A DNA stretch of 64,000 nucleotides from Escherichia phage phiWec188, in sequence record LC739537.1; one strand, 5' to 3'. The notes beneath the pieces are model-generated. The model was not told the DNA's origin, did no database searches, and saw nothing but the letters and a program-made list of their open reading frames with translations. Shown here one piece after another: positions 27,482 to 61,603 of this stretch (its first letter is position 1; the number at the start of each line of letters is the position of its first letter). Made by a program: the position numbers and the translations under genes.

Positions 27482-27491
27482 GGAGCACACT

Positions 27492-27728
27492 ATGGCTAAA
27501 TTTACTATGACCGTTTCTATTGATTTTGATGATGAGGACGGAGGCATTAACTTAGGTATTGCTCAGAGCCTGGAAGGTGATTTGAACCCGACACAAGCAG
27601 CTATGGCGGTATTCTTTAAAGATACCATAACAGTTACAGCAACACATTCTGCAAATCAAACTGTAGATTACGGTAGCATGGTTCAAGCCTTGGTTGATGC
27701 TCAAAACGGTGAAGATTGGGATGATTAA
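27492..27728 (+). CDS. hypothetical acidic protein (78 aa)
   Basis: TAAGGAG RBS. Confidence 0.5.
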   Translation: MAKFTMTVSIDFDDEDGGINLGIAQSLEGDLNPTQAAMAVFFKDTITVTATHSANQTVDYGSMVQALVDAQNGEDWDD

Positions 27729-27931
27729 TGGCTTATAATTATTATTGCGTTTACGCAAATGAAGCAAAGAAAGGCGACACTGGCACTAACGTCTATGCAG
27801 AATCAGAAACACATGCAAAAGAAATTGGTGCGATCCTTCTGTCACGTTGGACAGGTGGTAACTATTCTGCTGTGGATTTGTTCGCAGAAATGGATGATAC
27901 CATCCAAGAAGATACTATCACCACAACCTGA
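27728..27931 (+). CDS. hypothetical protein (67 aa)
   Basis: TAATG overlap. Confidence 0.45.
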   Translation: MAYNYYCVYANEAKKGDTGTNVYAESETHAKEIGAILLSRWTGGNYSAVDLFAEMDDTIQEDTITTT

Positions 27932-27995
27932 TATTGCTTGAAGTAGTTGGTACTCTCCTTGTTTCGGCAAGGAGGGTATTTTTAAGGAGGAAGTT

Positions 27996-28187
27996 ATGCA
28001 AGAGAATGAAGAGGTAGTTGTTAAAAAGTTCCCGACACGTACACAGGCAGTCAACTTTGCTTCTGATTTGCTTGTAGATGTGGAAGGAGTTCTCATTAGA
28101 CATGAAGGGGATTCCTGGAATGTCTCTTATAACGTAAACAGATCAATTATCTATTTAGGAGAAGAGAACTTCTCTCGTATAGATTGA
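27996..28187 (+). CDS. hypothetical protein (63 aa)
   Basis: TAAGGAGGAAG RBS. Confidence 0.5.
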   Translation: MQENEEVVVKKFPTRTQAVNFASDLLVDVEGVLIRHEGDSWNVSYNVNRSIIYLGEENFSRID

Positions 28188-28201
28188 TCGAAGGAGTAGT
28201 T

Positions 28202-28774
28202 ATGCGTTCTACTTACACAGGTAAGATTAATTCTGGTATCATTTTAGCAGTAGCAGGAATCATCAGCAAAACTTTCAAAGTGGCAAACCTACCAGAGTGT
28301 GTAGATTTTGACCACGTATTCAATCCATTAAATCCTTCTCGTTGTGTTGTTCGTAGCAACATTGAGAATCCAAACGAGAACTTGTTTTATGTAACATCGC
28401 CTTCACAAAGTATTCTAAACCAAGTGGAGGCTAAAATTATTACCGAAGGTAGTTATTTCTCATTGCTACCTTGTAAATCGGTGGCGATTGAAGATAGTAT
28501 CACCTTCGCAAATAACTTGGTCTTGACCATGTTCATGGTTTCTGATAAAGACTGTGGAGAGGATATGGTTTTAGCTGTAAGGAATGTTTATGACACATTG
28601 GGTATTGCTTATAGCTGTAAGTTGTGCGATGATTATAAATCTTGTTCAGACTTTTACATAAATGGTGTTCGGGTATGTCGTGTTGAATCCTACTGGGTGC
28701 AAGACACATACGTAACAGTAGCGAACGTGATCAATGAACCTATGTTCAGCCACGCTTTAGCGTTAATCATTTGA
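28202..28774 (+). CDS. hypothetical protein (190 aa)
   Basis: GAAGGAG RBS at internal ATG. Confidence 0.5.
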   Translation: MRSTYTGKINSGIILAVAGIISKTFKVANLPECVDFDHVFNPLNPSRCVVRSNIENPNENLFYVTSPSQSILNQVEAKIITEGSYFSLLPCKSVAIEDSITFANNLVLTMFMVSDKDCGEDMVLAVRNVYDTLGIAYSCKLCDDYKSCSDFYINGVRVCRVESYWVQDTYVTVANVINEPMFSHALALII

Positions 28775-28784
28775 GGAGGAAGGG

Positions 28785-29114
28785 ATGGAAATTACTACAG
28801 AACAGGCTCTTATCGACGAAGGGCGTAAAATCTTAGAGAAGCATTTGGGAGATATACATCAAACCCCTGGCTACTTAGGGTGGCGCATGGTTGAAGCTGT
28901 AGATTTCCTTCCTCGCACCAAACAAGACGTTGAAATGCGTTCTCTGTTTTTGCTTGTTAAGGTAGACGGAGATACGCCTTTCAAGCTGGCAGCTTCACAC
29001 ATTGAGAAGGTGGAGGAGAAAGCTTATTCAGAGTTTGCCGAACTCGTATTACAGGAGGATCTCGAAGGGAAGGTAAACATTTTTATTTTTCTGGATTTTG
29101 AGGAGGAGATATGA
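28785..29114 (+). CDS. hypothetical protein (109 aa)
   Basis: GAGGAGGAAGGG RBS. Confidence 0.5.
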   Translation: MEITTEQALIDEGRKILEKHLGDIHQTPGYLGWRMVEAVDFLPRTKQDVEMRSLFLLVKVDGDTPFKLAASHIEKVEEKAYSEFAELVLQEDLEGKVNIFIFLDFEEEI

Positions 29115-29848
29115 TTTTATATAAAGAGATTACCGTGGAGCAGGATCAAGACCTCTTCATTATCGGGGACTTGCATGGTTGCTACGATCTTTACTTGAAA
29201 GGTAAGAATTATCTTGGTATCCGAGATACAGATGTGGTTGTGTCTCTCGGAGATTTGACAGATCGTGGTAAACAAAACTTCAAATGTGTTGTAGAGTTTT
29301 GTCGCAAAGAGAATCGTTATGCTCTCTGTGGTAATCACGAAGATATGATGATTAAAGGCTTACTGGAAGGGGATCGTCGTTACTACGAATGTTGGTATCA
29401 GAATGGTGGTCATACGGTATTGGCAGAATGTGATGAAGAAGGATCTACTCTGCTCGCTACGATGGTTGAGGACAACCCTGTGATTTTGGTTGTGAACTAT
29501 CGAGGTATGAAGTTAGGGTTTATTCATGGTGGATATCCTTCCTCTTTTGAATATCTTCCCCTGACAGACATACCACACCTACGTATGAGCAAAGCAAAAG
29601 AAGCTACTTTCGCTGAAGCTTTGATGTGGGATCGTGATATGGTGGAGTGTGCCAAAGAAGGCATGAAACTTCCGGTTGTTATGGGTGTTGATTATGTGTT
29701 TCACGGGCACTCTTATGTGAAAGAACCTTTGATCAATGCTAATCGTGTTTATATGGATACTGGGTCTGTTTTCAATAACAACTTAACGTTTGCCTATTTT
29801 GATGCAGACGGTGGACTTCAGTTTTATTCAACTTTACAGGAGGATTAA
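29111..29848 (+). CDS. Ser/Thr protein phosphatase, lambda-PP-like (245 aa)
   Basis: GDLHGCYD, GDLTDRG, GNHE motifs of PPP-family phosphatases. Confidence 0.8.
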   Translation: MILYKEITVEQDQDLFIIGDLHGCYDLYLKGKNYLGIRDTDVVVSLGDLTDRGKQNFKCVVEFCRKENRYALCGNHEDMMIKGLLEGDRRYYECWYQNGGHTVLAECDEEGSTLLATMVEDNPVILVVNYRGMKLGFIHGGYPSSFEYLPLTDIPHLRMSKAKEATFAEALMWDRDMVECAKEGMKLPVVMGVDYVFHGHSYVKEPLINANRVYMDTGSVFNNNLTFAYFDADGGLQFYSTLQED

Positions 29849-30141
29849 TGTATAAAATTACAATCGTAGAATCTGTGGGCGAGATTCGTAAAGAAATTAT
29901 TCTGGAGACGGAAGATCTGGAACTGGTACGTGAAATCATAATTGGGAAGGATGTAGATAAGGTTGAGTCGGACGCTCCGAATCTGATGATCGATGATCAA
30001 TATGCAGAATTTCGTCGTATTTTTGAGGAGGAAAGGAAGAAGTGGGGCAAAGAACCACACGTTTTTCGTCCTTATAATCCATATCCTTCTGGTGATCCGT
30101 GGATCATGACTAACAGAAACCCGTTTGAAATAACCTGTTGA
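29848..30141 (+). CDS. hypothetical protein (97 aa)
   Basis: TAATG overlap. Confidence 0.45.
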   Translation: MYKITIVESVGEIRKEIILETEDLELVREIIIGKDVDKVESDAPNLMIDDQYAEFRRIFEEERKKWGKEPHVFRPYNPYPSGDPWIMTNRNPFEITC

Positions 30142-30149
30142 GGTGGCTT

Positions 30150-30728
30150 ATGAGCAACCTATTTTACACAGGTGTGGGAAGTCGAGAGATAACCCACGAA
30201 GAATGGGATTTAATGGTCGCTGTAGCAAAGTGGTTGGCTAACTGTGGTTTTACTTTACGTTCAGGTAATGCAAACGGTAGTGACTCTGCTTTCGAAACTG
30301 GTGTAGAAGAATCTAAAAACAAAACTCTCAAGGAGATTTATATCCCTTGGGAGAAGTTTGAAGGTAATGATATCCCAGGTGAGAAAATAGTGCTTGCTAA
30401 TCCTGACAGTATGAACTATGCTATCAGTCTCCAGTGGATAAAGGAAATCCATCCAGCATTTGATAAACTTAAACAAGGTGCACGTAAATTGCATCAACGT
30501 AACGTTCATCAGGTGTTGGGACAAGACCTGGAGCATCCTGTGCCTTCCTTATTCTTATTGGCATGTTCCAAAGAGGATAAGAAGGGAGATGTTATGGGTG
30601 GAACACGGACGGCGTGGCTCATCGCTAAAGCTAATAACGTTCCATGTTTTAACTTACGTGGTAAAACAAAGGAAGAACTTTATGCTTTTCTTAAACCGTT
30701 GGTCAAGGGGGCAATCAGTGGCAATTAA
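30150..30728 (+). CDS. Rossmann-fold protein, DprA/Smf- or SLOG-like (192 aa)
   Basis: YTGVGSR...SGNANGSDSAFETG glycine-rich pattern typical of DprA/SLOG nucleotide-binding domains; weak. Confidence 0.3.
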   Translation: MSNLFYTGVGSREITHEEWDLMVAVAKWLANCGFTLRSGNANGSDSAFETGVEESKNKTLKEIYIPWEKFEGNDIPGEKIVLANPDSMNYAISLQWIKEIHPAFDKLKQGARKLHQRNVHQVLGQDLEHPVPSLFLLACSKEDKKGDVMGGTRTAWLIAKANNVPCFNLRGKTKEELYAFLKPLVKGAISGN

Positions 30729-31242
30729 GTTAGATCGTGCAAACGTAGGTAATCGTTTTAACCTTAGTCGTATAAACGAGGACACAGATGTTACAGCAGA
30801 TATTGAAAAAATCATGCAGGGTATTGTCCATCACGGTTTGCGTTTTGCCAGAGATTTGGTAATCTTTCGTTATGACGGAGAAGATGATCGTTCAAAGAAT
30901 GATGGGATTATCTTCGTAGATAAAGATTTAACCCAAGCAGATATTGAACAGATCAACCGTTATTTTATTGGTGTAGGGGATCTTCAAGACACGCAGCTTG
31001 CACGTATGGCAGAAATTCTGGCGAATAAATTGTTGCAAGATATCGGAAAAGTTCTTGACAAAAATCCAAAACATGTTATAGTGACTATCCACAAAATGAG
31101 TTTTATTAAGTATCTTAACAAACCTGGTAAACTGGGTTATGGGTGGATACGCACAAGTGGACCACAAACCACTCTCGAAACCGAGATGTGCTATACAATT
31201 GAAGAAGTAAAACGTGAGGAGGGAGAGAATGGCGGAATTTAA
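30718..31242 (+). CDS. hypothetical protein (174 aa), probable GTG start
   Basis: AAGGGGG RBS 6 nt before GTG; ORF-track N-terminus overlaps upstream gene. Confidence 0.4.
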   Translation: MAIKLDRANVGNRFNLSRINEDTDVTADIEKIMQGIVHHGLRFARDLVIFRYDGEDDRSKNDGIIFVDKDLTQADIEQINRYFIGVGDLQDTQLARMAEILANKLLQDIGKVLDKNPKHVIVTIHKMSFIKYLNKPGKLGYGWIRTSGPQTTLETEMCYTIEEVKREEGENGGI

Positions 31243-31519
31243 TGAAGTGAAAAGTTACGAAAGCAACTTCGTAAGCAATTGGGAAGCATGGGATGAGATG
31301 GGTGTTGGTGAACTCTATTTCTACAATGTAACCCTTCGTCCAGAATATCAACATCTCATTCCAGAAGGCACTGTGCAGATCGGTATGTTCATGTCTTCTC
31401 AAGACGGTGTTGTGCAGTTTGAGTTTTACTCTGACACAGAACAGAACGAATTCACTTATCGTGCATTCAATATCGTATTAGCTTTAGGAGAGGAGAAATT
31501 TTATGACGACGAAGTATAA
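31229..31519 (+). CDS. hypothetical protein (96 aa)
   Basis: GAGGAGGGAGAGA RBS. Confidence 0.5.
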   Translation: MAEFNEVKSYESNFVSNWEAWDEMGVGELYFYNVTLRPEYQHLIPEGTVQIGMFMSSQDGVVQFEFYSDTEQNEFTYRAFNIVLALGEEKFYDDEV

Positions 31520-31700
31520 AACAGTAGCAGAAGCACTGAAAGCAGCACACGAAGCCATTGCAGAAGCTGAACAATTGGCTGATGAAACTGGCACAAGTTT
31601 TCACTTCTCAGTTGAATATGGGATGGGTGGTACTTATGACCCAGAAGATGAGAACGAATACACTGGGACCAACTGGCACCCATCTTCCCTCGGTTGTTAA
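31503..31700 (+). CDS. hypothetical protein (65 aa)
   Basis: AGGAGAGGAG RBS. Confidence 0.45.
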   Translation: MTTKYKTVAEALKAAHEAIAEAEQLADETGTSFHFSVEYGMGGTYDPEDENEYTGTNWHPSSLGC

Positions 31701-31714
31701 TAAGGAGAAATAAA

Positions 31715-31933
31715 ATGAGTGATCGTAATGCACAAGCATTAGCAGACAAAGCAAAAGCTATCATGTCCTTGGTAGATGAACTTACAAAAGAAGCAGAAAA
31801 GGAAGGTTTCGGTCTTAGCTTAGAAAACAATGCAATCTGTTTTGAAGATTGGCAATCTTCTGCTTGCTACGGCGAAGCTGATGATGGTTTCACCGTTGAC
31901 TCTGACGGTGTTTGGTACAGCAGTAATTGTTAA
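31715..31933 (+). CDS. hypothetical protein (72 aa)
   Basis: TAAGGAGAAA RBS at internal ATG. Confidence 0.5.
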   Translation: MSDRNAQALADKAKAIMSLVDELTKEAEKEGFGLSLENNAICFEDWQSSACYGEADDGFTVDSDGVWYSSNC

Positions 31934-31942
31934 GGAGGGATC

Positions 31943-32212
31943 ATGTCAGAAGGTATCGCCTTAATCAAGGCAAAAGTTAAAGAGATGGAAGCATCACAAC
32001 AGAAGTTCCGCAACGAGATTGAAGAACTTTGTGAGCAGTTCCAAGAACAAGCGTGGATCGGTGATTACGGGAATGGGGAAACTTATTACCCAACAGGAAC
32101 AAACGCAGAAGAACATTACCTCACCTATATCTGCGGAGATTATGATGTTGAGATTGACGAAAACGGTCTGATGACCCAAGGTCTTTGGGTGTCTTCCTCG
32201 GAAATGTGCTAA
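31943..32212 (+). CDS. hypothetical protein (89 aa)
   Basis: TAAGGAGGGA RBS. Confidence 0.5.
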   Translation: MSEGIALIKAKVKEMEASQQKFRNEIEELCEQFQEQAWIGDYGNGETYYPTGTNAEEHYLTYICGDYDVEIDENGLMTQGLWVSSSEMC

Positions 32213-32219
32213 TAAATAA

Positions 32220-32246
32220 TAACCCGCTTCGGCGGGTTTTTTATTG
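32220..32246 (+). terminator. rho-independent terminator (ACCCGC-TTCG-GCGGGT + TTTTTATT)
   Basis: perfect stem, tetraloop, T-run. Confidence 0.65.
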
Positions 32247-32253
32247 TGTGAGT

Positions 32254-32284
32254 GTTGACAAGACACGAAGAACCTGGTAGACTT
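32254..32284 (+). promoter_or_regulatory. candidate promoter TTGACA-N17-TAGACT
   Basis: consensus -35 just after terminator, weaker -10. Confidence 0.35.
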
Positions 32285-32311
32285 GTCTCATCAACTAAGA
32301 GAGGAGGATAT

Positions 32312-33256
32312 ATGAAAGTATTAATCGGTAGTCGTGCGTTGGAAATGATTTGTCGTTCTCGTGGTGTAGAACTGTATCGTGCTTGCGTAGATCTGGATTA
32401 CCTCTGCACTGAAGAAGAGTGGCAAGCAGAAGCCCAGAAATTCTCGAAAGATCGTTTCGTGGAAATTGTTGAACGTAAAGGTAACAAAGGGCATATCAAA
32501 ATGATCGCGGGTGCTCATCTGGAATACGATATTGCTCAACCAGGGGATTCTACAGAAGCATTGATCGAATATATTAAAGAGAATGCAGATCATCTGCCAC
32601 ATATTGGTTACGATGTGGTTGCACCTTTGGATGTTTTGTATCTCCTGAAAATGAGTCACCGTTTTAAGAAGGACAGTCCTCACTTCCTGAAAACAATGAA
32701 GGATATCCACTTCATGCGCAACCTTGGAGCGAAGATCCCTGAAGAGTTGGAAGATACATACAAACTGCGTCAGAAGGAGTCCTATAATTACGGGCACCCT
32801 AATCTGAACGTGAAAAGTAAAGATTTCTTCAAGGGTGATGAAGTGCCTTATGTGTATGATCACGATACCATCCATGAAGCTGTTGCCGTGTTGGGTGATC
32901 CCGCTTATAAATCATACATGAAAGACGATAGCGAAGTGATGACCAGTAAAGAGAAGTTCTTTGCACAACCTAAACATATCCGTTTGCTGGGTGTTTACGA
33001 AGAAGCTTGTGTCCTGGCATTAGAGCGTTCACAGATCCCGTTTGGGGAAGATGTAGATGGTCCAACTCCTAAACAAAGTTTTATGATGGCTTTATCCAAA
33101 GTTTGTACCTCGATCACCAGTGGATGGTTTCGTGAATATGCCTGGGAAAACTTCCAAGTTGTGGTAAAACTGTATGAGCAAATGGGCCAAGATGATTACG
33201 TGGCACGTTTTAAAGCAAATCTTCACATGGTGAAACCTTACGAAGGAGGTTATTGA
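32312..33256 (+). CDS. hypothetical protein (314 aa)
   Basis: AGAGGAGGA RBS at internal ATG of ORF 32252..33256. Confidence 0.55.
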   Translation: MKVLIGSRALEMICRSRGVELYRACVDLDYLCTEEEWQAEAQKFSKDRFVEIVERKGNKGHIKMIAGAHLEYDIAQPGDSTEALIEYIKENADHLPHIGYDVVAPLDVLYLLKMSHRFKKDSPHFLKTMKDIHFMRNLGAKIPEELEDTYKLRQKESYNYGHPNLNVKSKDFFKGDEVPYVYDHDTIHEAVAVLGDPAYKSYMKDDSEVMTSKEKFFAQPKHIRLLGVYEEACVLALERSQIPFGEDVDGPTPKQSFMMALSKVCTSITSGWFREYAWENFQVVVKLYEQMGQDDYVARFKANLHMVKPYEGGY

Positions 33257-33257
33257 T

Positions 33258-33656
33258 ATGGGTTGGTGTGATCAGTCCCAAAGTTACTTCAAAGTAACAC
33301 ATGTGGATCTCAATAAAGCAAGAGTGAAGTTGTTGAGTATTGAAAAAGAAACAGCAGCTATTGACAAACGCCTCCGAGAGAGTAAAGTGGTAATCACTTC
33401 TTGGTTCGGACTGAAACGTAAAATCCTTACGCAGCGAGAGCATGTAATTAAAAATATGCATGGTTGGGCTTGGTTCCACGACATGGCAAAACACCTGGGG
33501 TACATTTCTACTGAAGAACACGACCTCTTGGAGCTACGTTATCGCCTTCCAGATGTAGAAGATTTAGACTTGTGGATCAGTTCCGAACAAATCTTCTTAA
33601 CCGAGGGCGATTGGAAGAAAGTCAATATTTGTCTTAAATGGAGGGAGAATGAGTAA
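33258..33656 (+). CDS. hypothetical protein (132 aa)
   Basis: GAAGGAGG RBS. Confidence 0.5.
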   Translation: MGWCDQSQSYFKVTHVDLNKARVKLLSIEKETAAIDKRLRESKVVITSWFGLKRKILTQREHVIKNMHGWAWFHDMAKHLGYISTEEHDLLELRYRLPDVEDLDLWISSEQIFLTEGDWKKVNICLKWRENE

Positions 33657-34332
33657 AGTAGTTTTATCAACATTTGATGGATCTGGGATCATGGTACTTC
33701 GTTACGCAGAAGCAGGGCATAAATGCTACTGTGTAAATGCTGACGAAGGTGATCACGGGGCTTATGAAGTTCGCATGAAACATCCTAACATCACTTACGT
33801 GAACGCATGGATTGATTCCAACTTCAACCCTGAAGATTACGGTATTCCTAAGCCAGATATTATCTTTGGCTTCCCTCCATGTACCATGCTTGCTGGTTGC
33901 GGTAGTAAGCACGAACGTAGCGCAGAAGAATTGGAAGAAGCTTTGGCTAACATTCGTATCGTGGAAGCTTTAGGAAATAAATACAACGTTCCGTGGATGA
34001 TTGAGAATCCAGTGGGTAAACTGTCAACATTGTGGCGTAAACCGGATTTCTATTTCGATCCTTACGAATATGGCGGGTATCTGTTTGATGAAGAAGGCAG
34101 CTTCCACCCTAAAATGCCTACCCGCGACGGTTACACAAAGAAAACCTGTATTTGGCATGGCAATGGTTTTGTTAAGCCTGTGAAGAAGCCTGTGGAACAT
34201 ATTGGTTGCTTCTGGGGCTGGAAAAGTTTAGGCGGAGCAAGTGCGAAAACAAAACAACTCCGATCGTTAACTGCTCGCGGTTTTGCTCGTGCTGTGTTTT
34301 TATCTAACAACCTTTTAGATAAGGAGGAATGA
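33649..34332 (+). CDS. short DNA cytosine-C5 methyltransferase-like protein (227 aa)
   Basis: motif I-like FDGSG, motif IV GFPPC (PC dipeptide with catalytic Cys), motif VI-like ENPVG; shorter than canonical C5-MTases. Confidence 0.45.
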   Translation: MSKVVLSTFDGSGIMVLRYAEAGHKCYCVNADEGDHGAYEVRMKHPNITYVNAWIDSNFNPEDYGIPKPDIIFGFPPCTMLAGCGSKHERSAEELEEALANIRIVEALGNKYNVPWMIENPVGKLSTLWRKPDFYFDPYEYGGYLFDEEGSFHPKMPTRDGYTKKTCIWHGNGFVKPVKKPVEHIGCFWGWKSLGGASAKTKQLRSLTARGFARAVFLSNNLLDKEE

Positions 34333-34997
34333 TGACCCATTTAAAACCTTTTGGTGGAAAACCTATTGTGGCGTATCAAGTAGATCGTGATGATTGGGAA
34401 GGCAGTGTAGTTGTCTTTGGTAATCATTTCTTTGCTGTGCGTCGTAAAGGCGCAAGTATGTTGGATTGTGAGGAGGAGTATTGTCATGTCTCCCGCGCCA
34501 AAGAATTCGACCAGTATGCAGAAAAAGGTTTTGTGCCTGTCAAAGCTTTACTGGAGGCAGGATGGTGGATACACTCTGCTCATGATGGTGTTAGACTTGA
34601 CGAGTCTGTAGATAATCTTGAGGCAGATTTTGACGAATGGGAAGATGGCATGTATATTGAGGAGGATCTTGTATTTTCCCTTGACGAGAAAAGTGTGTGG
34701 AAGAACTGGGAAGAAATGGAACGTCACGCGCATTTTATCAACAACGCTTTGATTCGTAAAGCCTGGTTCACAGAGGCGGTGAAGGTAGCGTATCCGCAAT
34801 TCACCTTTACGGAGGTTTGGGGCGGTCCACACCACATCACCCATACAGCATTTTTCGACTTCCCTGGTTCACGTTACAAAGGTAATGTAATGTGGGACTG
34901 GGATGAGAATGAAGTACCATCTGTTCAAGACTTTCGTTGTTATGTTTGCCAAGGCGATCAAGAAGCCCTTGACAAATACCTGCAAAGTCTGGTATAG
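34329..34997 (+). CDS. hypothetical protein (222 aa)
   Basis: AAGGAGGAATG RBS, ATGA overlap. Confidence 0.5.
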   Translation: MMTHLKPFGGKPIVAYQVDRDDWEGSVVVFGNHFFAVRRKGASMLDCEEEYCHVSRAKEFDQYAEKGFVPVKALLEAGWWIHSAHDGVRLDESVDNLEADFDEWEDGMYIEEDLVFSLDEKSVWKNWEEMERHAHFINNALIRKAWFTEAVKVAYPQFTFTEVWGGPHHITHTAFFDFPGSRYKGNVMWDWDENEVPSVQDFRCYVCQGDQEALDKYLQSLV

Positions 34998-35011
34998 TGC
35001 AAGCAACTGAA

Positions 35012-35041
35012 CAAAGCCTCCTTTTCAGGGGGCTTTTCTTT
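35012..35041 (+). terminator. rho-independent terminator (AGCCTCC...GGGGGCT + TTTCTTTT)
   Basis: stem-loop + T-tract after stop. Confidence 0.5.
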
Positions 35042-35055
35042 TATGAGGAGGGAAT

Positions 35056-35550
35056 ATGTTTCAAGTAGAAATCCATGTGCACAACAGTTGTTCAAATTGC
35101 GAAACTTGTGGTTACAATAGTTCAACCATGATCACTATTAGCGGAGACTTAGGACATGCCAAGTTTGGCGAAGTCGCAAGCTGCTTCAGCGGAGAGGATG
35201 CAGATTGGCATGATATTGCTTTGTGGCTATGCGGAAGACTGAATGTAAATTGTAAAGACTTCCCTGAACTGTTGAGCCGAAATCTTGTCGATAGTCGGGA
35301 ACAAGCCTACAATATTTATGCCGCTTCTGTTTATGTTGATCATAAATGGGTAGAAGATGAAGAAGCTGAACGTTTGCTACGCCTCTACTATGAAGCAGAG
35401 GAAGCTTATGATAACTATTACAGCATGTCCAACATCCTGCGTTTGTTTGCAGAGTTTGATATTTACTTTGAAGTGAGTTATTCTGAAGATGAAGTGTATG
35501 ATTTTGATGACGATGATTACGAGGAGGATGAAGAATGCCAAGACGATTAA
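35056..35550 (+). CDS. hypothetical protein, Cys-rich N-terminus and strongly acidic C-terminus (164 aa)
   Basis: AGGAGGG RBS; CSNCETCG motif; DDDDYEEDEE tail. Confidence 0.5.
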   Translation: MFQVEIHVHNSCSNCETCGYNSSTMITISGDLGHAKFGEVASCFSGEDADWHDIALWLCGRLNVNCKDFPELLSRNLVDSREQAYNIYAASVYVDHKWVEDEEAERLLRLYYEAEEAYDNYYSMSNILRLFAEFDIYFEVSYSEDEVYDFDDDDYEEDEECQDD

Positions 35551-36338
35551 TAGTGATCAGCGGCGCTGGTCTAAGCGCCGATAGCGGTGTACAAACATTC
35601 CGTACAGAAACAGAGAGTGGAAAAGCATTATGGGACGAGTACGATTTAGAGGAGGTTTGTAATATTGGGGCATTCCAGGCAGGTTATCGTAGACGTACAT
35701 GTCCCGATTTACCTGTTATCGGAGGTGAGGATGAGGAAGGATACAACCTCTACAACAAGACCCATGATTTCTATAACAAGCGTCGTATAGAGTTGGATAA
35801 TATAGATCCAAACGCTGCACATCGTCTGATTGCTCGTTTATACTCAGAGTATGGCGCTGATCGTATTTTAAACATTACCACTAACGTAGACGATCTTTTG
35901 GAACGTGCTGGTGTTGTTCACGAAGATGTTCTGCATGTGCATGGCTACCTACCAGAAATTGTAGTGGATCGGAAGTTTATTAAAGAAATCGGTTATGCAA
36001 GTGTGGATGTGGATAAGTACGATTACGTGAAACCTAACGTTGTCTTCTTCGGGGAATCTGCTCCGCTGTACACAGAGATGTACCATATGCTCGATAATCT
36101 CACATCTCAGGATATGGTGATTGTTGTAGGTTGCTCTAATCAAGTGATCAACTTCAACTGGGAGTTGTTCCCAGCCCTCAATACAGGAACAAAGATGGTC
36201 GTAGTTAATCCTGGGGTTAATTACGAAGAAACACTTCTCTATGAAGATCGTGGAGTTTTTGTTTACCGAGAAAAAGCTGCAACAGCCTTCAGTAATGAAG
36301 GTTTCATTAAAATGATCGAAGACCACTTAAACAAATAA
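35535..36338 (+). CDS. SIR2-family (sirtuin-like) NAD-binding protein (267 aa)
   Basis: GAGLSADSGVQTFR (GAGxSxxSGIxxFR), TTNVDDLLERAG (TQNIDxLHxxAG), HG and VVFFGES motifs of Sir2 domain; canonical Cys4 Zn module not evident. Confidence 0.6.
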   Translation: MPRRLIVISGAGLSADSGVQTFRTETESGKALWDEYDLEEVCNIGAFQAGYRRRTCPDLPVIGGEDEEGYNLYNKTHDFYNKRRIELDNIDPNAAHRLIARLYSEYGADRILNITTNVDDLLERAGVVHEDVLHVHGYLPEIVVDRKFIKEIGYASVDVDKYDYVKPNVVFFGESAPLYTEMYHMLDNLTSQDMVIVVGCSNQVINFNWELFPALNTGTKMVVVNPGVNYEETLLYEDRGVFVYREKAATAFSNEGFIKMIEDHLNK

Positions 36339-36343
36339 ACCAA

Positions 36344-36369
36344 CCAAGGGGCTACGGCCCCTTTCTTAT
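36344..36369 (+). terminator. rho-independent terminator (GGGGC-TACG-GCCCC + TTTCTT)
   Basis: stem-loop after SIR2-like gene. Confidence 0.5.
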
Positions 36370-36381
36370 TAGGAGATTACT

Positions 36382-36654
36382 ATGCAACAAGAAACTTTCG
36401 ATTTTTATCTCGCCAATTATGTCTACTACTTCTCTAATGGTACACAGAAAGGGGAAGGCAATCTTTACTTGGCTACCAACACTGGAGCAGGTGTTCGTAA
36501 AGCCAATATTGATTTAGCAAGAGAAACAGTTCGTTCTGGACTGGAAGAGACGCTTGAAACTCCAGTTGTTGTGGTTATACAAACTATCAGTTACCTTGCA
36601 ACCTGTACTAAAGAGGATTTTGAGGCTCCTCAAACGCAATCTAACGAAGCATAA
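36382..36654 (+). CDS. hypothetical protein (90 aa), last + strand gene
   Basis: TAGGAGA RBS. Confidence 0.5.
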   Translation: MQQETFDFYLANYVYYFSNGTQKGEGNLYLATNTGAGVRKANIDLARETVRSGLEETLETPVVVVIQTISYLATCTKEDFEAPQTQSNEA

Positions 36655-36688
36655 AAGAAAGGCACCCACTTGGGTGCCTTTTCTATTT
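36653..36688. terminator. bidirectional terminator at convergence of + and - transcription (AAAAGAAA-GGCACCCA-CTTG-GGTGCC-TTTTCTATTT)
   Basis: perfect hairpin flanked by A-run on one side and T-run on the other. Confidence 0.65.
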
Positions 36689-36723
36689 GAGAGCGTCTCT
36701 GTGCGATTTAAGGGGGTTCTCGG

Positions 36724-41185: not shown

Positions 41186-41325
41186 CGTCCGTTACCATTC
41201 AATTGATCACGTAGCTTTTCTGCATCCCGTTTCTGTGGAAACGTGGCAACAGAGACATTGAACTCATTAACAACAGAAAAGGACTTATCCAGATTTTCAC
41301 GGATAGTAAAAGGTTTCTTGCTCAT
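41182..41325 (-). CDS. small ORF (47 aa)
   Basis: GGAGGGAG RBS; ATGA overlaps at both ends. Confidence 0.4.
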   Translation of the reverse strand: MSKKPFTIRENLDKSFSVVNEFNVSVATFPQKRDAEKLRDQLNGNGR

Positions 41326-41675
41326 AATCTCCCTCCATCTTTAAGACGACTCTTAACCCAGTGCAGACGATCTGGATCTGTGTGTTGTGAAGCATTTTCC
41401 GCATCCAGTAAATAAGACTTTCTTCCGAACGGATATGTTTCACATAGCTCTGCTTCAATAAACTGATTATACATCTCTTTCATAGTATCTTCGATTAAAT
41501 ACCAGTCACCTTCTGGAAGGTCTAAATCATACAACCAATACTCAAGATTGCCACACAAGCCTACAGAAGAGCTAAACACGTCTTCCATAACAAGGCCCGT
41601 CTCATCTCGATTTTCAGCCCAAGATAACCAAGCCTGATAAAAATCTAAAAGCAGTTTACTTGATGCAATCTTCAT
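41322..41675 (-). CDS. family-A small protein, paralog 1 of 9 (117 aa)
   Basis: shares FYxxWLxWAE...GLC...YPFG...H..(D/N)..RL.WVK.RL pattern with eight other genes; AGGAGAG RBS. Confidence 0.55.
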   Translation of the reverse strand: MKIASSKLLLDFYQAWLSWAENRDETGLVMEDVFSSSVGLCGNLEYWLYDLDLPEGDWYLIEDTMKEMYNQFIEAELCETYPFGRKSYLLDAENASQHTDPDRLHWVKSRLKDGGRL

Positions 41676-41677
41676 AC

Positions 41678-41863
41678 TCACTCTCCTACACTTTCTGGTG
41701 TGCCATCCCAAGCACCTAAGACTTCTTTCAGGTGTGCACGGGGTTCTTTAAAATACTCTTCCATTTTATCCAGAAGATCGTCTGTGTTTGGGCTGTATCC
41801 CAACATCCCACGTAAAACTCTTTCTTCTTGCAAGACCAACCATCTATGATAGCTTCGAATCAT
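41678..41863 (-). CDS. hypothetical protein (61 aa)
   Basis: GGAGGAATATT RBS at internal ATG. Confidence 0.4.
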   Translation of the reverse strand: MIRSYHRWLVLQEERVLRGMLGYSPNTDDLLDKMEEYFKEPRAHLKEVLGAWDGTPESVGE

Positions 41864-43503: not shown

Positions 43504-43833
43504 TTATTTACCCCCTTTCAGTTTTGATTTAACCCATGCCAACCGTTCTTTGTTCATATGTTGCGTGCCGTGCTCATAATCCTGCATATAAGCTAAGTCA
43601 CCAAATGGGTACAAGGTGTCTTGGAAATCTTTGAAAAGCATTTCTGCAAATGCTTCGGTAACTTCGTCAATTTCTTTTAATGAAAACCCTTGTTCCAGTA
43701 ACCAGTAAGACAAAGAGTCGCAAAGCCCAACAAGTGTGCTGAAGGGTTTGACATTCTCTCTTTTCGGAGCCACTTCAGCCCAGGCTAACCATGCCTTAAG
43801 AAATTGTTGGATAATCACTTCGTTCTTTGTCAT
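43504..43833 (-). CDS. family-A small protein, paralog 2 of 9 (109 aa)
   Basis: FLKAWLAWAEVAP...VGLC...YPFGD...H.N.ERLAWVKSKL. Confidence 0.55.
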   Translation of the reverse strand: MTKNEVIIQQFLKAWLAWAEVAPKRENVKPFSTLVGLCDSLSYWLLEQGFSLKEIDEVTEAFAEMLFKDFQDTLYPFGDLAYMQDYEHGTQHMNKERLAWVKSKLKGGK

Positions 43834-43841: not shown

Positions 43842-44522
43842 CTATTTAATGTTCAGTTTGTTAAGCAGACGTTGAACCGTATAAGGGTGCCATGTGGTAC
43901 TGCCACGAACAGTTTCAATTTTCTCTTCAGTAAAGATCTCTGCGATTCGAGTCAGAGATGCTCCTGCTTTCCTCATTAACGTAACTTTATCACGAAGCTT
44001 CTCGGCATACAAGGTGCTTTTATCATTTTTTCGAGATTGTCTGTAATCTTTACGAGACTCTTTATATTTTGGAGATGCAGATCCTAAGAGAATACCTTTG
44101 CTCTTAGCTACTGCCAAACCTTTTTTGATACGATCTGCCATACCACGTACTTCCTGTTCTGCAAGGACAGATAGAAGCTGAATAACCATCTTGTCTGCAT
44201 CCGGCATGATCGCAATCTTAACGTCAATCATTTCCAAGAGGATTGCTACCGAGGCGTTGTTACGACCTAAACGGTCCACTTTAGCTACCAAAAGCGTTGC
44301 TCCTGTAGCTTTACACATCTCAACAGCCTTGACAAGTTCTTTACGTTGCTTCCAGTCGCCTTTACCTGAATAAAATTCAGAAAACTCTCCGATCACTTCA
44401 GCCTCCGGCACAGATTCCAAGAAATAACGGATATCGTTTTCCTGGCTCTGCATACCATACTGGGCTTCACCTTTCTTCTGTTTAGACAAACGGCTGTAAA
44501 CAACAAACTTTTTCATGATCAA
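43842..44522 (-). CDS. serine recombinase (resolvase/invertase family) (226 aa)
   Basis: N-terminal catalytic domain VVYSRLSKQKKG (YxRxS with Ser nucleophile), DRLGRN motif, C-terminal HTH; GAGGAG RBS. Confidence 0.8.
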   Translation of the reverse strand: MIMKKFVVYSRLSKQKKGEAQYGMQSQENDIRYFLESVPEAEVIGEFSEFYSGKGDWKQRKELVKAVEMCKATGATLLVAKVDRLGRNNASVAILLEMIDVKIAIMPDADKMVIQLLSVLAEQEVRGMADRIKKGLAVAKSKGILLGSASPKYKESRKDYRQSRKNDKSTLYAEKLRDKVTLMRKAGASLTRIAEIFTEEKIETVRGSTTWHPYTVQRLLNKLNIK

Positions 44523-44526
44523 CTCC

Positions 44527-44733
44527 TCAATCGTTATCAGGATTCCATTTTACAAACTTGAAGCAGTTATTGTCAAGGAATTTATTGGCATCTTTTTCCT
44601 GTTTCCAAACGGTGCATTGTTCTTTAAGGGCTATCTGCTCATTCTGCACGTCTGATACCGCATTAGCAAAGAGGATCAGAAATCCAAAAAAGACCAACAT
44701 CAATAACAGATTAAAGAAAGTTTGAAAACTCAT
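44527..44733 (-). CDS. small membrane-anchored protein (68 aa)
   Basis: GGGAGGATG RBS at internal ATG; hydrophobic N-terminus. Confidence 0.45.
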   Translation of the reverse strand: MSFQTFFNLLLMLVFFGFLILFANAVSDVQNEQIALKEQCTVWKQEKDANKFLDNNCFKFVKWNPDND

Positions 44734-44984
44734 ACATCCTCCCATTTGATCCACAGAATCATTTCTTCAACGTAAACCTCTTTACCTTTGTTATTGATGA
44801 AAGTGTATTCTATGAACTCCGCTGTATACTTTTTGTTGTATTGCTCCGCTGCTGGGATCGGACACTTTGTCATACGTGTCTCAACCCATTGACGATGAAT
44901 CGTTGCCTTGTTTTTGGGGTCAAACGGGTGTAAATAGTGCGGTTCTCCCTCTTGACTATGCCCCATTTTATTCTTCTTCGCCAT
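44730..44984 (-). CDS. hypothetical protein (84 aa)
   Basis: GGAGGAGG RBS at internal ATG. Confidence 0.45.
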   Translation of the reverse strand: MAKKNKMGHSQEGEPHYLHPFDPKNKATIHRQWVETRMTKCPIPAAEQYNKKYTAEFIEYTFINNKGKEVYVEEMILWIKWEDV

Positions 44985-45312
44985 GCTGCACCTCCTCCAG
45001 ACGGTCATACACCCAAGCAAGACGATCGAAGTTTTTGTGTTGGGTGCCGGACTTCTTCTCAATCCAATAACAAGGAATCCAACCTGACAGATCCCACTCG
45101 CCATCGAACGGATAGTTCCATTCTAAACCTTCCGCTTCAAACTGCTCTACCATTTCATCAGAGAGGGAAAGATACAAATCTTGGTCTTCCCCGCAATACA
45201 CTTCCACTGCATGACACAAACCGCAAGCTTTGATGTTTTCGTTCGGATCTTGGCTCATAGCCTGATCCAACCACCACTCATAAAATTCCAGTAAAGCTTC
45301 ACTTGACCTCAT
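44968..45312 (-). CDS. family-A small protein, paralog 3 of 9 (114 aa)
   Basis: LLEFYEWWLDQAM...CGLC...YPFDG...H.N.DRLAWVYDRL. Confidence 0.5.
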   Translation of the reverse strand: MRSSEALLEFYEWWLDQAMSQDPNENIKACGLCHAVEVYCGEDQDLYLSLSDEMVEQFEAEGLEWNYPFDGEWDLSGWIPCYWIEKKSGTQHKNFDRLAWVYDRLEEVQHGEEE

Positions 45313-45685
45313 TTTCTTCCCCTCCCCCTTTTCCAATAAGCGGCGAAGCCGCGATCATCGACTTATAGACAACTTCGGCTGTTCGGGTTAGCCCCGTCCA
45401 GTCCTTCGCTGCCTCCAACATTTCTGGGGTAGGCTCTTTCGGGACCAAGACATACCCTTCTGGGATACACATTCCACTCGCTTTCTTTTCAGCTTCTTCC
45501 GACATAACTTGCCACACTCCGTAGCTGCAATTCTCGAACAAACAATAGAGTTCAGATCCTTCATCATCCACGACAATGAAACAGTTCTCATCTGCTACTT
45601 TGGCGTTGTAAATCCGACCTATGGTCAAATAGTCTCGGACATTAATAAACTTAGAGGCAAGAAACTTCACACGAATGTTTTTCAT
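45299..45685 (-). CDS. hypothetical protein (128 aa)
   Basis: GGAG RBS. Confidence 0.5.
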   Translation of the reverse strand: MKNIRVKFLASKFINVRDYLTIGRIYNAKVADENCFIVVDDEGSELYCLFENCSYGVWQVMSEEAEKKASGMCIPEGYVLVPKEPTPEMLEAAKDWTGLTRTAEVVYKSMIAASPLIGKGGGEENEVK

Positions 45686-47149: not shown

Positions 47150-47470
47150 TCAACCAATTATTTCTTCTGCTACACGTTCTTTTACCCAGTTCACACGATC
47201 CACATTCAAATGACAACGGCTTTTTTCCGCTTCTAAGGTGTACTTTCCAAAATTACTATTGAAAGGCAACACCATAACCAAATCTTTGTGGTAGAACTGC
47301 TCATGCATTTCATCCAGTACAGGTTCGTATCGTTCGCTTTCTCCCATATCGTAAAAATCATAGAGGTTCGTGCACAAACCTGTGCAACGGGTGAACGGTT
47401 TACCTTCAGGAGCACCAGCTTCCAACCATGCCAAATACGTGCGGTAAAATGTTAATAGTTCTTCGCTCAT
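47150..47470 (-). CDS. family-A small protein, paralog 4 of 9 (106 aa)
   Basis: LLTFYRTYLAWLEAGAPEGKPF...TGLCTNL...LPFN...HLNVDRVNWVKERV; AAGGAGAG RBS. Confidence 0.55.
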   Translation of the reverse strand: MSEELLTFYRTYLAWLEAGAPEGKPFTRCTGLCTNLYDFYDMGESERYEPVLDEMHEQFYHKDLVMVLPFNSNFGKYTLEAEKSRCHLNVDRVNWVKERVAEEIIG

Positions 47471-47679
47471 TTCCACTCTCCTTCGTGATAGTAAACCTCA
47501 AAAGAATAGTAAGTGAACATGCTCATTGTAACACCTCCCATTTCTGGATCAACGGAAGTGTTGTTATATATGTCAACTACTGCCTGACCCGCTGCTTTGG
47601 CATGTGCTGCCGAATCACAGGCACAAACATCTTTCTCCCACGGAAACTTGCCATCATACTTAAGACGGACAATCCACAT
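47467..47679 (-). CDS. hypothetical protein (70 aa)
   Basis: GGAGGAATAAG RBS. Confidence 0.5.
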   Translation of the reverse strand: MWIVRLKYDGKFPWEKDVCACDSAAHAKAAGQAVVDIYNNTSVDPEMGGVTMSMFTYYSFEVYYHEGEWK

Positions 47680-47681: not shown

Positions 47682-47909
47682 TTATTCCTCCATCTCAAAC
47701 CATTCAGGGAACACTTTACGGAAGACACGGGTTGTTTCCAAAAGGAATTCCAATTCTTTTTCCAGATCTGCGTTCCAATCATGCACTTTAACATTGATCG
47801 CCAATGCACTTGCACGACGACTCAATTCTTGACAGATCGGGTCGCGCAACACTATTGAATCATAAAACTGACAAACAGCTTCAAGTTCATACCAATTATA
47901 AGCAGCCAT
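47682..47909 (-). CDS. hypothetical protein (75 aa)
   Basis: AGAGGAGGATG RBS. Confidence 0.5.
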   Translation of the reverse strand: MAAYNWYELEAVCQFYDSIVLRDPICQELSRRASALAINVKVHDWNADLEKELEFLLETTRVFRKVFPEWFEMEE

Positions 47910-48235
47910 TATTCATCCTCCTCTGCAATACGATCTCTCACCCAATTAATCCTGTCCACGTTCAGGTGACAGGCATCTGCGTCTGACTCTAAAACATATG
48001 CATCATAGTTCTCATTGAAAGGGAGTTCTTGACTCAACCCTTTATAGTGGAACTGCGCGTGCATTTCATCTGATAAGGTTGTTATAATAGGATTGTAATT
48101 ATCTCTGTGCACGTAATCGAACAAATTGGCACACAAACCACAATTTGGCAGAAACGGTCTACCGTAAGGGGCACCATCTTCGATCCAGGCAAGGTACTTT
48201 TTGTAAAACTTCATCAGATCTTTACTTGTTTTCAT
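47909..48235 (-). CDS. family-A small protein, paralog 5 of 9 (108 aa)
   Basis: LMKFYKKYLAWIEDGAPYGRPF...CGLCANL...LPFN...HLNVDRINWVRDRI. Confidence 0.55.
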   Translation of the reverse strand: MKTSKDLMKFYKKYLAWIEDGAPYGRPFLPNCGLCANLFDYVHRDNYNPIITTLSDEMHAQFHYKGLSQELPFNENYDAYVLESDADACHLNVDRINWVRDRIAEEDE

Positions 48236-57301: not shown

Positions 57302-58882
57302 GATAATCTCCTCTCTTGGTTTCATGACAAACATCGTAACTCTCAACGAGGAACATCTTACGATCAATCCTCGGCAATTACAATTCATTTATCATTGGTA
57401 TTCCCTATCAATTATTCCATATATACCTGTTATTTTTGACACCCCTTTGGTCAAATATTAATCGGCAAAATATCTGGGGGGAGAGATTATTTCGATACCC
57501 TCTGTTCCTGCGATTTATCGGCAAGAATATCATCGGCAAAGAGACAGAAAAGCCTTTGGTAGCAAGGATTTATGGCGAGTACGTCAGGACTGCTGAACGC
57601 GAATTTTCCGGCCCCTCCACTTCTGCGCGCCGGAATCTTCAAATATCAATGAGAATAATTATCATTATCATTCGCATTCAATAACTTAGGCGATCTTTTC
57701 CCCTGCTATAAGGTTGGGCCTAACTTAAGCACTACTTTTTAAACAATCCTTTATCAATCAACTACTTAACAACCTAAACATATGATTACTACGGTGTAAA
57801 GGTGCCGCCCATAACAGACTACCTATAAAATAAATGAGAATGATTATTATTCAGACAATTCTTACAACAAATCGACCAATAAATCAAGATTTTTCTGATT
57901 TTATTTACGTTTAAGAGAACGTGCTCAACATATCCGCCATAGGCGGCTATCTTTCCCCCGCAAACATTAAGCCTTTATCTTTCATCTTTCTGTATATCTG
58001 TACACTATGCAACCTGTCGCTATTCGCTCATGTTGCTACGTGCTAATCCTTCACCATGCTAATGATGATCACACTGAACGATAGTGATAACTCATGTAAT
58101 AATTACATTGATTATTATATTACGCTTAACTATTCTTACATACAATGCTAATAATAAGCCAGCGTAATTAGTGTAAGCGTAATACGCTTGCAATAATTGC
58201 AAGCTACATAATCACAAGAAATAACTATCACCGATAGTTATGATTGTGGGGGTGTAGTTGGCTTATTATTAGCTCGCTACGTGTCCGGCGTAGCGTGCTA
58301 ATGATGAGGCTTGGAATGATTCATTTTACAATTATTACAGTCTTCACTATTTCGGCAATAGGCACTATTTTACTAATAGTTGTTATTTTAATGATTTCAT
58401 TTGTTATCGTTAGTTAGTTGGTTGTTTTGTCGTGTTATCGTTATCTTGCTTAGTATTCATCATGGTTTGATTGTTTGTCGTTATCAATCATCTTTCTATT
58501 ATTCCTTTGATTATGATTAGTTTGCTTATTGTTTTAGGTTGTTGGTTGGTTAGTTGTTGCGAACTATTATCAACATTATAGTTATGCACTTATATTGCAT
58601 AGATACGCAAGGTTAGATGATAATGGTTATCATTGCACTGGAAAGGAGGAAAACAGCCTTTTTCGGTTGTTTGTTGTTGGTTGTTGATCGATTTTAACCG
58701 CTCTAAATAGCTCTCTAACAGCCTGTTGCCCTGGGAGGTATGGTTATTCGTTTGCTGGTTGATTAGCTCGATACCGCGATTTATTCATTTTTGTTCTGTG
58801 TCGGTTTTTCATAGGCGGAAGCTATCAACATTATTTGGACAAAAAGAAAGGGCGCTTAGTGCGCCCCTTGTTTTGTTGTCGA
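57302..58882. other. about 1.6 kb non-coding region: AT-rich, palindromes and direct repeats, followed by a GT-skewed low-complexity tract
   Basis: no ORF of 60 aa or more on the gene-bearing minus strand; palindromes near 58175-58204 (AAGCGTAATACGCTT, GCTTGCAATAATTGCAAGC) and 58221-58241 (ATAACTATCACCGATAGTTAT); repeated ATCGGCAA and GCTAATGATGA words; T/G-rich iteron-like tract about 58380-58700. Confidence 0.6.
58849..58873 (-). terminator. minus-strand terminator (GGGGCGCACTAAGCGCCC + TTTCTTT)
   Basis: GC hairpin + U-tract immediately downstream of gene 58883..59302. Confidence 0.5.
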
Positions 58883-60373: not shown

Positions 60374-60577
60374 TTAGATGATCTGCATATCCTCCACGAT
60401 AATTTCTAATTTCCAAACAAGATGATCTAAGCTCCCTGATAAAAATGATTCCGATACATAACCGCCATCGGACACCGTAGCAAGGATCTCGCCATTTGCT
60501 TGCTCTTTGATTTGAACATCCAGGCGGTTAGCCTTTGCTTTATTCAGGACGGCGATCAGGCGGTTAGCTGTAGTCAT
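60374..60577 (-). CDS. hypothetical protein (67 aa)
   Basis: GGAAGGAAAAACACC RBS at internal ATG. Confidence 0.5.
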   Translation of the reverse strand: MTTANRLIAVLNKAKANRLDVQIKEQANGEILATVSDGGYVSESFLSGSLDHLVWKLEIIVEDMQII

Positions 60578-60597
60578 GGTGTTTTTCCTTCCAGTTG

Positions 60598-60660
60598 TGA
60601 GCGGCACCATTGCCGCCCTACGAAATACATCTTACACTATCCGGCACATCATGCAAGCTA
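60598..60660 (-). promoter_or_regulatory. promoter-leader cassette (TTGCAT-N16-TAAGAT, CGTAGGGCGGCA-ATGG-TGCCGC hairpin)
   Basis: member of repeated cassette family. Confidence 0.4.
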
Positions 60661-60662
60661 TT

Positions 60663-60854: not shown

Positions 60855-60866
60855 TTTTATTACTCC

Positions 60867-61288: not shown

Positions 61289-61339
61289 GTTGTCTATCCT
61301 CTTCCTATTGCGTTTAATGGGGCGTTGCCGCCCCGCTGA

Positions 61340-61564: not shown

Positions 61565-61603
61565 AATCTTTTCCTTTCTGATAGTGGGGCGTTGCCGCCC
61601 TTT

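Follow-up and report, generated by a model that had tools for sequence, protein, structure and literature searches.

A serine recombinase gene in an array of small genes

We analyzed a 64,000-nucleotide stretch of Escherichia phage phiWec188 (LC739537.1), hereafter the window, and in particular a small serine recombinase gene on its minus strand (Table 1). The gene sits in a tightly packed minus-strand array of small genes without assigned function, and the intergenic gaps that flank it are only 4–8 bp. The region is 100% identical to Escherichia phage phiWec190 (LC739539.1; Phapecoctavirus, Stephanstirmvirinae). Because of an assembly overlap, the deposited phiWec190 record begins and ends with the same 148 bp, and self-BLAST gave a unit genome of 150,541 bp. 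The window spans the junction of the record's ends and lies on the reverse strand of the record.

A first-pass annotation of this DNA, which was made from the letters alone, had described a resolvase/invertase-type serine recombinase of 226 amino acids among small genes. The length holds for the open reading frame (ORF) on the minus strand (43842..44522), if it is counted from a TTG. However, the gene likely starts at the ATG at 44516, which gives 224 amino acids plus the stop codon. GenBank uses the same start: its coding sequence (CDS) BDU13898.1 (675 nt, "hypothetical protein") matches the 224-amino-acid ORF.

Table 1. Features discussed in the text, with positions in the window unless stated otherwise.
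Feature	Position	Strand	Basis
Serine recombinase CDS	43842..44516	minus	ORF; PF00239; PHROG_125; GenBank BDU13898.1; AlphaFold2; Foldseek
Ribosome-binding site GAGGAG	44523..44528	minus	6 nt before the ATG at 44516; read from sequence
Catalytic Ser11 codon (TCT), putative	44484..44486	minus	Sequence and invariant alignment column
Catalytic domain and long helix E (aa 1–145), predicted	44082..44516	minus	Pfam aa 7–143; model helix 109–139; NG86
C-terminal four-helix DNA-binding domain (aa 146–224), predicted	43845..44081	minus	Weak PF07508; helices 149–220; Foldseek
Putative empty ancestral site, 64-bp intergenic spacer	27932..27995	plus	tblastx collinearity, ORFs, sequence comparison
phrog_2510 paralogs	41322–41711, 43504–43833, 44968–45336, 47150–47476, 47909–48235	minus	ORFs and PHROG match
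Dyads in the P0071 prophage	28–49 and 911–932 of the examined prophage sequence		Dyad scan
dTDP-rhamnose, Sir2/CobB-like and NrdAB genes	~20300–23600, ~35500–36700 and 15700–19400	plus	GenBank; approximate, converted coordinates

The assignment to the serine recombinases was borne out by several kinds of evidence. Pfam's resolvase family (PF00239) matches residues 7–143 (E = 1.8e-16; 61 bits against a cutoff of 23.3), and PHROG_125 ("DNA invertase") matches over the full length (E = 6.9e-32), with PHROG_95 ("integrase") as a secondary match. The two motifs that had been read from the sequence are present, as VVYSRLSKQ (residues 5–13, with Y7 of the Y-x-R-x-S motif) and VDRLGRN (residues 80–86). 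In an alignment of 37 homologs, which reaches down to 30% identity, R9, S11, D81, R82, R85, E120, E122, and R129 are invariant, so the catalytic serine is not missing. By alignment to the gamma-delta/Tn3 resolvases, we take the invariant set to include the nucleophilic serine and the active-site arginines and aspartate (R8, S10, D67, R68, and R71 of gamma-delta), with Ser11 corresponding to Ser10. An AlphaFold2 model built from the same 37-member alignment (mean predicted local distance difference test score, pLDDT, of 89) has an alpha/beta catalytic domain, a long helix E (residues 109–139), and a four-helix C-terminal domain (residues 149–220). The best Foldseek matches to this model are the catalytic domains of Sin and gamma-delta resolvase (probability of 1.0), and longer alignments are to Bxb1 and other serine integrases. 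The family match, the active-site residues, and the fold are those of the serine recombinase superfamily, and the sequence and the model leave us nearly certain that the gene encodes an intact member of it.

The C-terminal domain departs from what had been expected, which was a helix-turn-helix (HTH) of the resolvase/invertase type. No HTH_7-type three-helix domain was matched in Pfam at E ≤ 0.1. Instead, the four predicted helices are followed by nothing in the model, and the C-terminus weakly matches PF07508 ("Recombinase"; E = 0.012, below the threshold; positions 13–50 of 102 in the profile). One family member, P0066, carries the PF07508 domain according to precomputed hits. It is thus a different domain from the classical HTH of Hin or the resolvases, and the sequence and the model suggest a likeness to the beginning of the "Recombinase" domain in large serine recombinases.

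We compared the protein with known systems. It shares its catalytic fold, active-site residues, long helix E, and size with gamma-delta/Tn3 resolvase and Sin; unlike them, it lacks the three-helix HTH_7 domain and an adjacent multi-subsite res, and its gene lies outside of any transposon or plasmid. Its alignment with the Bxb1, phiC31, and TP901-1 integrases, in both sequence and structure, covers the catalytic domain and the first helices of the recombinase domain. However, with 224 rather than over 400 amino acids, the protein has no zinc ribbon, no coiled coil, and only the beginning of the recombinase domain. The IS607-type layout (an N-terminal MerR-like HTH and then the catalytic domain) does not apply either: here the catalytic domain begins at residue 2 and the DNA-binding domain follows it. 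This architecture is widespread, as a profile search of 1.84 billion representative proteins returned 2,532 clusters at E ≤ 1e-30, mostly of 215–240 amino acids and with end-to-end matches.

The recombinase is a near-core gene of a virulent lineage

Using tblastn, we found homologs of the recombinase in 162 phage records, almost all of which apparently belong to the Stephanstirmvirinae. Identities were about 73% in Phapecoctavirus, 55% in Justusliebigvirus, 50% in the Klebsiella relatives, and 36–39% in Vibrio phages and Shewanella phage 1/40. Two Vibrio phages, ICP1 and VPMCC14, have only fragments of the catalytic domain. All of the sampled Phapecoctavirus and Justusliebigvirus-type records have the gene. 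Also, the recombinase is present in 106 records named for Escherichia, which is the number that match the phage's tail module; this comparison is approximate, as not every record was listed, and it suggests that the gene is near-universal in the subfamily. The gene is absent from the related Vequintavirinae, as judged from hit lists.

The orthologs include phi92 gp053 (55% identity over 98% of the query), ESCO13_00051 ("resolvase") and the phAPEC8 protein (both 73%), SKA64 ORF101, and the "serine recombinase" of Ro121c4YLVW. The named proteins from phi92, ESCO13, SKA64, and Ro121c4YLVW are of the same family and length (55–73% identity) and come from virulent myoviruses of about 150 kb. Full-length similarity places our protein in the phi92 gp053/PHROG_125 orthologous group. 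Because orthologs were already annotated as resolvase or DNA invertase, the recombinase is known as an annotation and is not a new gene, contrary to what the first-pass annotation had implied. We found no functional study of the family in the literature. A 2023 paper remarks, without support, that the SKA64 ortholog "keeps concatemers as single genomes" (PMC10282059).

The catalytic domain is under strong purifying selection. Relative to ESCO13, residues 1–144 are 94% identical, with nonsynonymous divergence (dN) of 0.039 and synonymous divergence (dS) of 1.38, or dN/dS of about 0.03 (NG86); dS is saturated here and in the rest of the gene. Overall, the recombinase is a functional-looking and vertically retained near-core gene of the phi92/phAPEC8-like virulent myoviruses.

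In a copy from phage Schickermooser (NC_048196.1, 11300–11955), several frameshifts and stops interrupt the N-terminal half, and the annotation covers only the C-terminal 128 amino acids. This copy may be a decaying pseudogene or may reflect local sequencing errors.

The Phapecoctavirus lineage is regarded as virulent, and our results agree with the description of this phage as virulent. In principle, the protein could be a small serine integrase, like that of the filamentous phage phiRSM, and could allow a cryptic lysogenic or plasmid-prophage state. The PHROG_95 match and the resemblance of the C-terminal domain to that of large serine integrases point in this direction. However, neither att sites nor signs of lysogeny are evident, and the protein, at only 224 amino acids, is without the zinc ribbon and the coiled coil that serine integrases have. 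Furthermore, megablast with a conserved 10-kb block of the phage returned nothing from 5,426 complete E. coli genomes and their plasmids, which argues against a prophage or plasmid-prophage state, and prophage matches were likewise absent for the relative SKA64 according to a published report (PMC10282059). We consider an integrase to be extremely unlikely.

The two domains diverge at very different rates

In contrast to the catalytic domain, residues 145–224 are only 37% identical to ESCO13 (dN = 0.71, dS = 1.42; NG86). Nucleotide similarity to ESCO13 ends at about 44083, which is the domain boundary, and there is no ESCO13 match from there to about 42107. The comparison indicates that a frozen catalytic domain is joined to a hyper-divergent DNA-binding domain, and few parts of the locus change faster than the latter; the phiWec190-type C-terminal domain differs strongly from the ESCO13/phi92 type. 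We considered a recent recombinational swap of the C-terminal domain but dropped this idea, as dS is equally saturated in both halves and a swap would look the same as divergence in situ.

A dyad within the coding sequence (CTAAGAG-N10-CTCTTAG, 44083–44108) lies exactly where the similarity to ESCO13 stops. Because its score is at chance level (9/12), this is probably a coincidence.

One potential explanation for the divergence is that the recombinase acts in conflict: it would benefit the phage by rearranging or excising DNA other than the phage's own (from a co-infecting phage, a satellite, a prophage, a defence island, or the host chromosome, for example), and fast evolution would let the DNA-binding domain keep up with such targets. 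The contrast in identity (37% versus 94%) arises at equal synonymous divergence, and it coincides with the loss of nucleotide similarity down to about 42107. On the other hand, dS is saturated, and the contrast may partly reflect relaxed constraint on a small helical domain. Also, the gene has been kept from Shewanella and Vibrio phages to coliphages despite wholly different hosts. Such a role has no predicted target, and a literature search gave no precedent for it.

The gene has moved as a single ORF

In phi92, Klebsiella phage phi1_175008, and Shewanella phage 1/40, the recombinase gene is downstream of a gene for an HslV-like protease and is followed by a short ORF. A DprA-like gene comes directly after this short ORF in Shewanella 1/40 and a few genes further on in phi92 and phi1_175008; the same block contains a Ser/Thr phosphatase (phi92 and the Klebsiella phage) or a DNA ligase (Shewanella 1/40). 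A TTGACA-N17-type promoter and a hairpin precede the recombinase in these three phages and in Vibrio phage 1.170.O. Thus, in phi92, phi1_175008, and Shewanella 1/40 the gene is in a DNA-metabolism block and has its own promoter, while in our phage it is in the early small-gene array. Across Phapecoctavirus, it lies in a variable stretch of this array, between gp013-like and gp016-like anchors.

By tblastx, the DNA-metabolism block of phi92 is collinear with positions 21932–35091 of the window except for the recombinase, which maps by itself to 44019–44543. At the place where the gene would be expected there is a 64-bp spacer (Table 1). The spacer ends in AGGAGGGTATT, which is the ribosome-binding-site context before the recombinase's ATG in phi92, and this is fused to the ribosome-binding site of the next gene. 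From these comparisons, we conclude that the recombinase gene moved between loci as a single ORF and that the spacer is the scar of the old site. The inferred borders are at ribosome-binding sites, as in ordinary phage mosaicism, with no sign of the ends of an element.

The spacer also contains a terminator-like hairpin (CTCCTTG-TTTCGG-CAAGGAG, 27951–27978) that is followed by a run of T. The equivalent place in phi92 has a different hairpin, CCTGT-N6-ACAGG, so at the old site the structure seems to be conserved while the sequence is not.

The new neighbourhood includes genes for five paralogous proteins of about 108 amino acids that share the motif LLxFYxxWLxW...GLC and match phrog_2510 (Table 1).

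This history bears on two explanations for the gene. First, as suggested by the first-pass annotation, it might be the remnant of a mobile element, or more generally a selfish gene or moron that persists and moves without serving the phage. Its relocation was precise to the ORF and left a ribosome-binding-site scar, it is missing from the hit lists for Vequintavirinae, the Schickermooser copy is frameshifted, and ICP1 and VPMCC14 retain just the catalytic domain. All of this could be expected of such a gene. However, a leftover would not be expected to have a dN/dS of 0.03 in its catalytic domain or to keep every active-site residue invariant, and the gene is in essentially all of the sampled members of two genera (and across the subfamily) as well as in distant Vibrio and Shewanella phages. 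Furthermore, no flanking repeats or ends define an element, and the borders of the insertion and deletion lie at ribosome-binding sites, not at sites of the type that recombinases use. We therefore consider this explanation quite unlikely. Second, relocation as a single ORF into an accessory array of early genes, including the five phrog_2510 paralogs, is consistent with a role in conflict, but the ancestral position in a DNA-metabolism block, with its own promoter, weighs against such a role.

No candidate recombination site was found

The first-pass annotation found no crossover sites by eye, and our searches, both local and genome-wide, did not find any either. Repeats around the gene (36–52 kb of the window) were at chance level. 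Across the window, dyads with 11-nt arms were terminators only, and their counts equalled those in shuffled controls. In the reconstructed 150,541-bp genome, self-BLAST found no inverted repeats besides palindromic terminators, and the sole family of direct repeats was the leader hairpins that follow early promoters. Even-centred dyads were not above shuffled controls in the predicted terminal repeat (described below), in a 1.6-kb noncoding region, or in the neighbourhood of the recombinase. We found no gix- or hix-like dyads near the gene, no res-like cluster adjoining it, and no inverted crossover sites flanking it, and an Rfam scan of the window had no matches.

In a further genome scan, for places where 10-mers recur close together in direct or inverted orientation, two noncoding regions ranked highest, and one of these holds Fur-box-like 9-1-9 palindromes in an array. 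We rejected these palindromes as crossover sites because they are 19 bp long and have a single base at the centre, whereas the sites of serine recombinases span about 24–32 bp and are cut around a central dinucleotide. Two other candidates were set aside. For a dyad from the prophage that encodes P0071, CTGAAATA-N6-TATTTCAG, the window has no match beyond what chance would give. Upstream of phi92 gp053, the sequence TTCCTGTAACA has some likeness to a gix half-site, but we dismissed this as post hoc, given that the DNA-binding domain is not Gin-like.

These searches bear on the idea that the recombinase inverts a segment of the phage's DNA, such as tail fibres (host-range switching) or a promoter, as Gin, Cin, and Hin do. 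Gin and Cin (of phages Mu and P1) and Hin (of Salmonella) are likewise small serine recombinases, and the first two are phage-encoded. PHROG_125 and several GenBank annotations carry the label "DNA invertase", and several tail fibres and spikes are annotated in these phages. Also, the gene for P0071, a relative with 41% identity, closes off a prophage and has baseplate-like and possible tail-fibre genes, as well as a large serine integrase, next to it. Nevertheless, our phage differs from the Gin, Cin, and Hin systems in that it is virulent, its recombinase has a different DNA-binding domain with no match to the Hin-type HTH, and it has neither flanking inverted repeats nor an invertible segment. 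The 22-kb baseplate and tail-fibre module is collinear, in a single place, and on one strand in all 140 of 140 matching records (five extra places were assumed to be splits at the ends of records and were not inspected individually). Together with the lack of inverted repeat pairs in the genome, this makes inversion very unlikely.

The P0071 prophage itself has two perfect 22-bp dyads of the form given above, which are 883 bp apart and about 5 kb from the gene (Table 1); 0.1 would be expected by chance. These could flank a small invertible or excisable segment.

The terminal repeat and other repeated elements

The phi92 record annotates a left direct terminal repeat of 343 bp, which aligns to positions 135552–135862 of the phiWec190 record, or about 57591–57901 of the window. 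The predicted terminal repeat (about 57595–57925 on the minus strand, some 330 bp) lies centrally within a 1.5-kb region (57390–58880) that has no ORF on the coding strand and is about 13 kb upstream of the recombinase in the direction of early transcription. The alignment suggests that the physical ends of the phiWec190 genome are probably in this predicted terminal repeat. The deposited record starts elsewhere.

Within the predicted terminal repeat, 17 of the 19 positions at 57651–57669 agree with the E. coli Fur-box consensus GATAATGATAATCATTATC (0.03 expected by chance). Further Fur-box-like sites are at 57832–57851 and 58617–58634, and the phi92 repeat has similar boxes. About seven related 9-1-9 palindromes (AATGAGAATnATTCTCATT) are in the noncoding region that heads the early array, at 121.7–121.9 kb of the phiWec190 record and outside of the window. 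These boxes may be involved in iron- or Fur-linked control, in Fur titration, or as operators for a phage repressor.

The leader element CACGTAGGGCGGCAATGGTGCCGCTCAC has more than 10 direct copies among small early genes, from about 60450 to 64000 of the window and at 122.5–133 kb of the phiWec190 record. Each has a 7-bp stem and a 4-nt loop and lies after a -10-like hexamer and before a ribosome-binding site. By sequence, these look like the 5' hairpins of early transcripts.

Proposed role in resolution or circularization

The closest non-phage relatives that we found suggest another role. Full-length homologs (33–38% identity over 96–99% of the query) are encoded on non-mobilizable plasmids of 5.8–7.3 kb. 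In Marinovum pMaD11 (5.8 kb), the recombinase is accompanied only by RepA and a ParA-like protein, and a 32-bp even-centred dyad (81% complementary) is about 440 bp upstream of its gene. On a 6.4-kb plasmid of Synechococcus elongatus, three copies of the motif TTGTAACAC, in both orientations, are within 70 bp upstream of the recombinase gene. By analogy, these arrangements look like multimer-resolution systems. The plasmid proteins have the same two-domain architecture as the phage protein. Their genes adjoin noncoding DNA with dyads or res-like motifs, whereas the phage gene has no adjacent noncoding DNA.

By analogy to these systems, we propose as the most likely role that the recombinase acts at a single site in the DNA of the phage itself, in a reaction of the deletion type, and so would form unit circles from multimers or from terminally repeated linear DNA. 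We give this proposal a probability of roughly 0.35–0.4. In this scheme, and as is typical of the superfamily, a dimer would bind a dyad-symmetric site of about 24–32 bp via its C-terminal domains, and two site-bound dimers would synapse to form a tetramer. Given the intact active site and fold, Ser11 would be expected to make 2-nt staggered breaks in all four strands and to become linked to the DNA as phosphoserine; half of the tetramer would then rotate by 180 degrees and the ends would be rejoined. The site would be single-copy, so direct repeats of it would arise only where genomes are joined in replicative multimers or concatemers, or if it lies in the two short terminal repeats. Deletion or resolution between such repeats would produce or maintain unit-length circles early in infection.

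Several observations are consistent with this proposal. A single site per genome suffices for a resolvase, so the lack of repeats in the genome is not an argument against resolution. Resolution is favored over inversion because there are no inverted repeats in the genome and no inverted tail segment in the 140 records. The proposal also agrees with the plasmid relatives, with expression early in infection, and with the DNA-metabolism block as the ancestral setting, and we count the short direct terminal repeats of the lineage (343 bp in phi92) in its favor. A functional analogy is the Cre/loxP system of phage P1: Cre is phage-encoded, cyclizes terminally redundant DNA, and resolves dimers. However, Cre is a tyrosine recombinase from an unrelated family, P1 is temperate, and we found no lox-like site.

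Other considerations weigh against resolution or circularization. Most directly, we did not find a candidate site: dyads near the gene and in the terminal repeat were within the range of shuffled controls, and local repeats were at chance level. Tailed phages normally package their DNA from concatemers, so that resolving these would bring no obvious benefit. Classical resolvases of the Tn3 type require a supercoiled circle, and it is therefore doubtful that incoming linear DNA would be a substrate. If the frameshifts in Schickermooser are not sequencing errors, then the gene may be dispensable. Finally, a DNA-binding domain that is so much less conserved between close relatives than the catalytic domain, along with relocation to the accessory early array, fits conflict genes better than housekeeping genes.

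The conflict role is a serious rival to the deletion-type role, even if we judge it to be somewhat doubtful. That our repeat and dyad scans detected no target site on the phage genome also fits with it. A broader statement covers both roles: the virulent lineage would keep an active serine recombinase for an undescribed lytic role, which would be either Cre-like circularization and unit-length resolution via a cryptic site, possibly within the terminal repeat of about 340 bp, or the rearrangement of host, prophage, or satellite DNA with a retargeting DNA-binding domain. In this full form, we consider the statement to be unlikely.

Other annotated genes in the window

According to the GenBank annotation, the window also encodes a full dTDP-rhamnose pathway (rffG, glucose-1-phosphate thymidylyltransferase, rfbC, and rfbD), a Sir2/CobB-like deacylase, and NrdAB (Table 1).

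Implications

Phapecoctavirus and Justusliebigvirus are popular candidates for phage therapy, and screens of therapeutic phages flag "recombinase/integrase" genes as signs of lysogeny. For such screening, it is useful that this recombinase is a conserved feature of a lineage without a detectable prophage state. The contrast between a frozen catalytic domain and a fast-diverging DNA-binding domain is also a natural system for studying how serine recombinases are retargeted. More broadly, a near-universal and constrained recombinase, without a detectable site, in a virulent phage implies either an undescribed step in lytic DNA metabolism or a conflict between phage and host.

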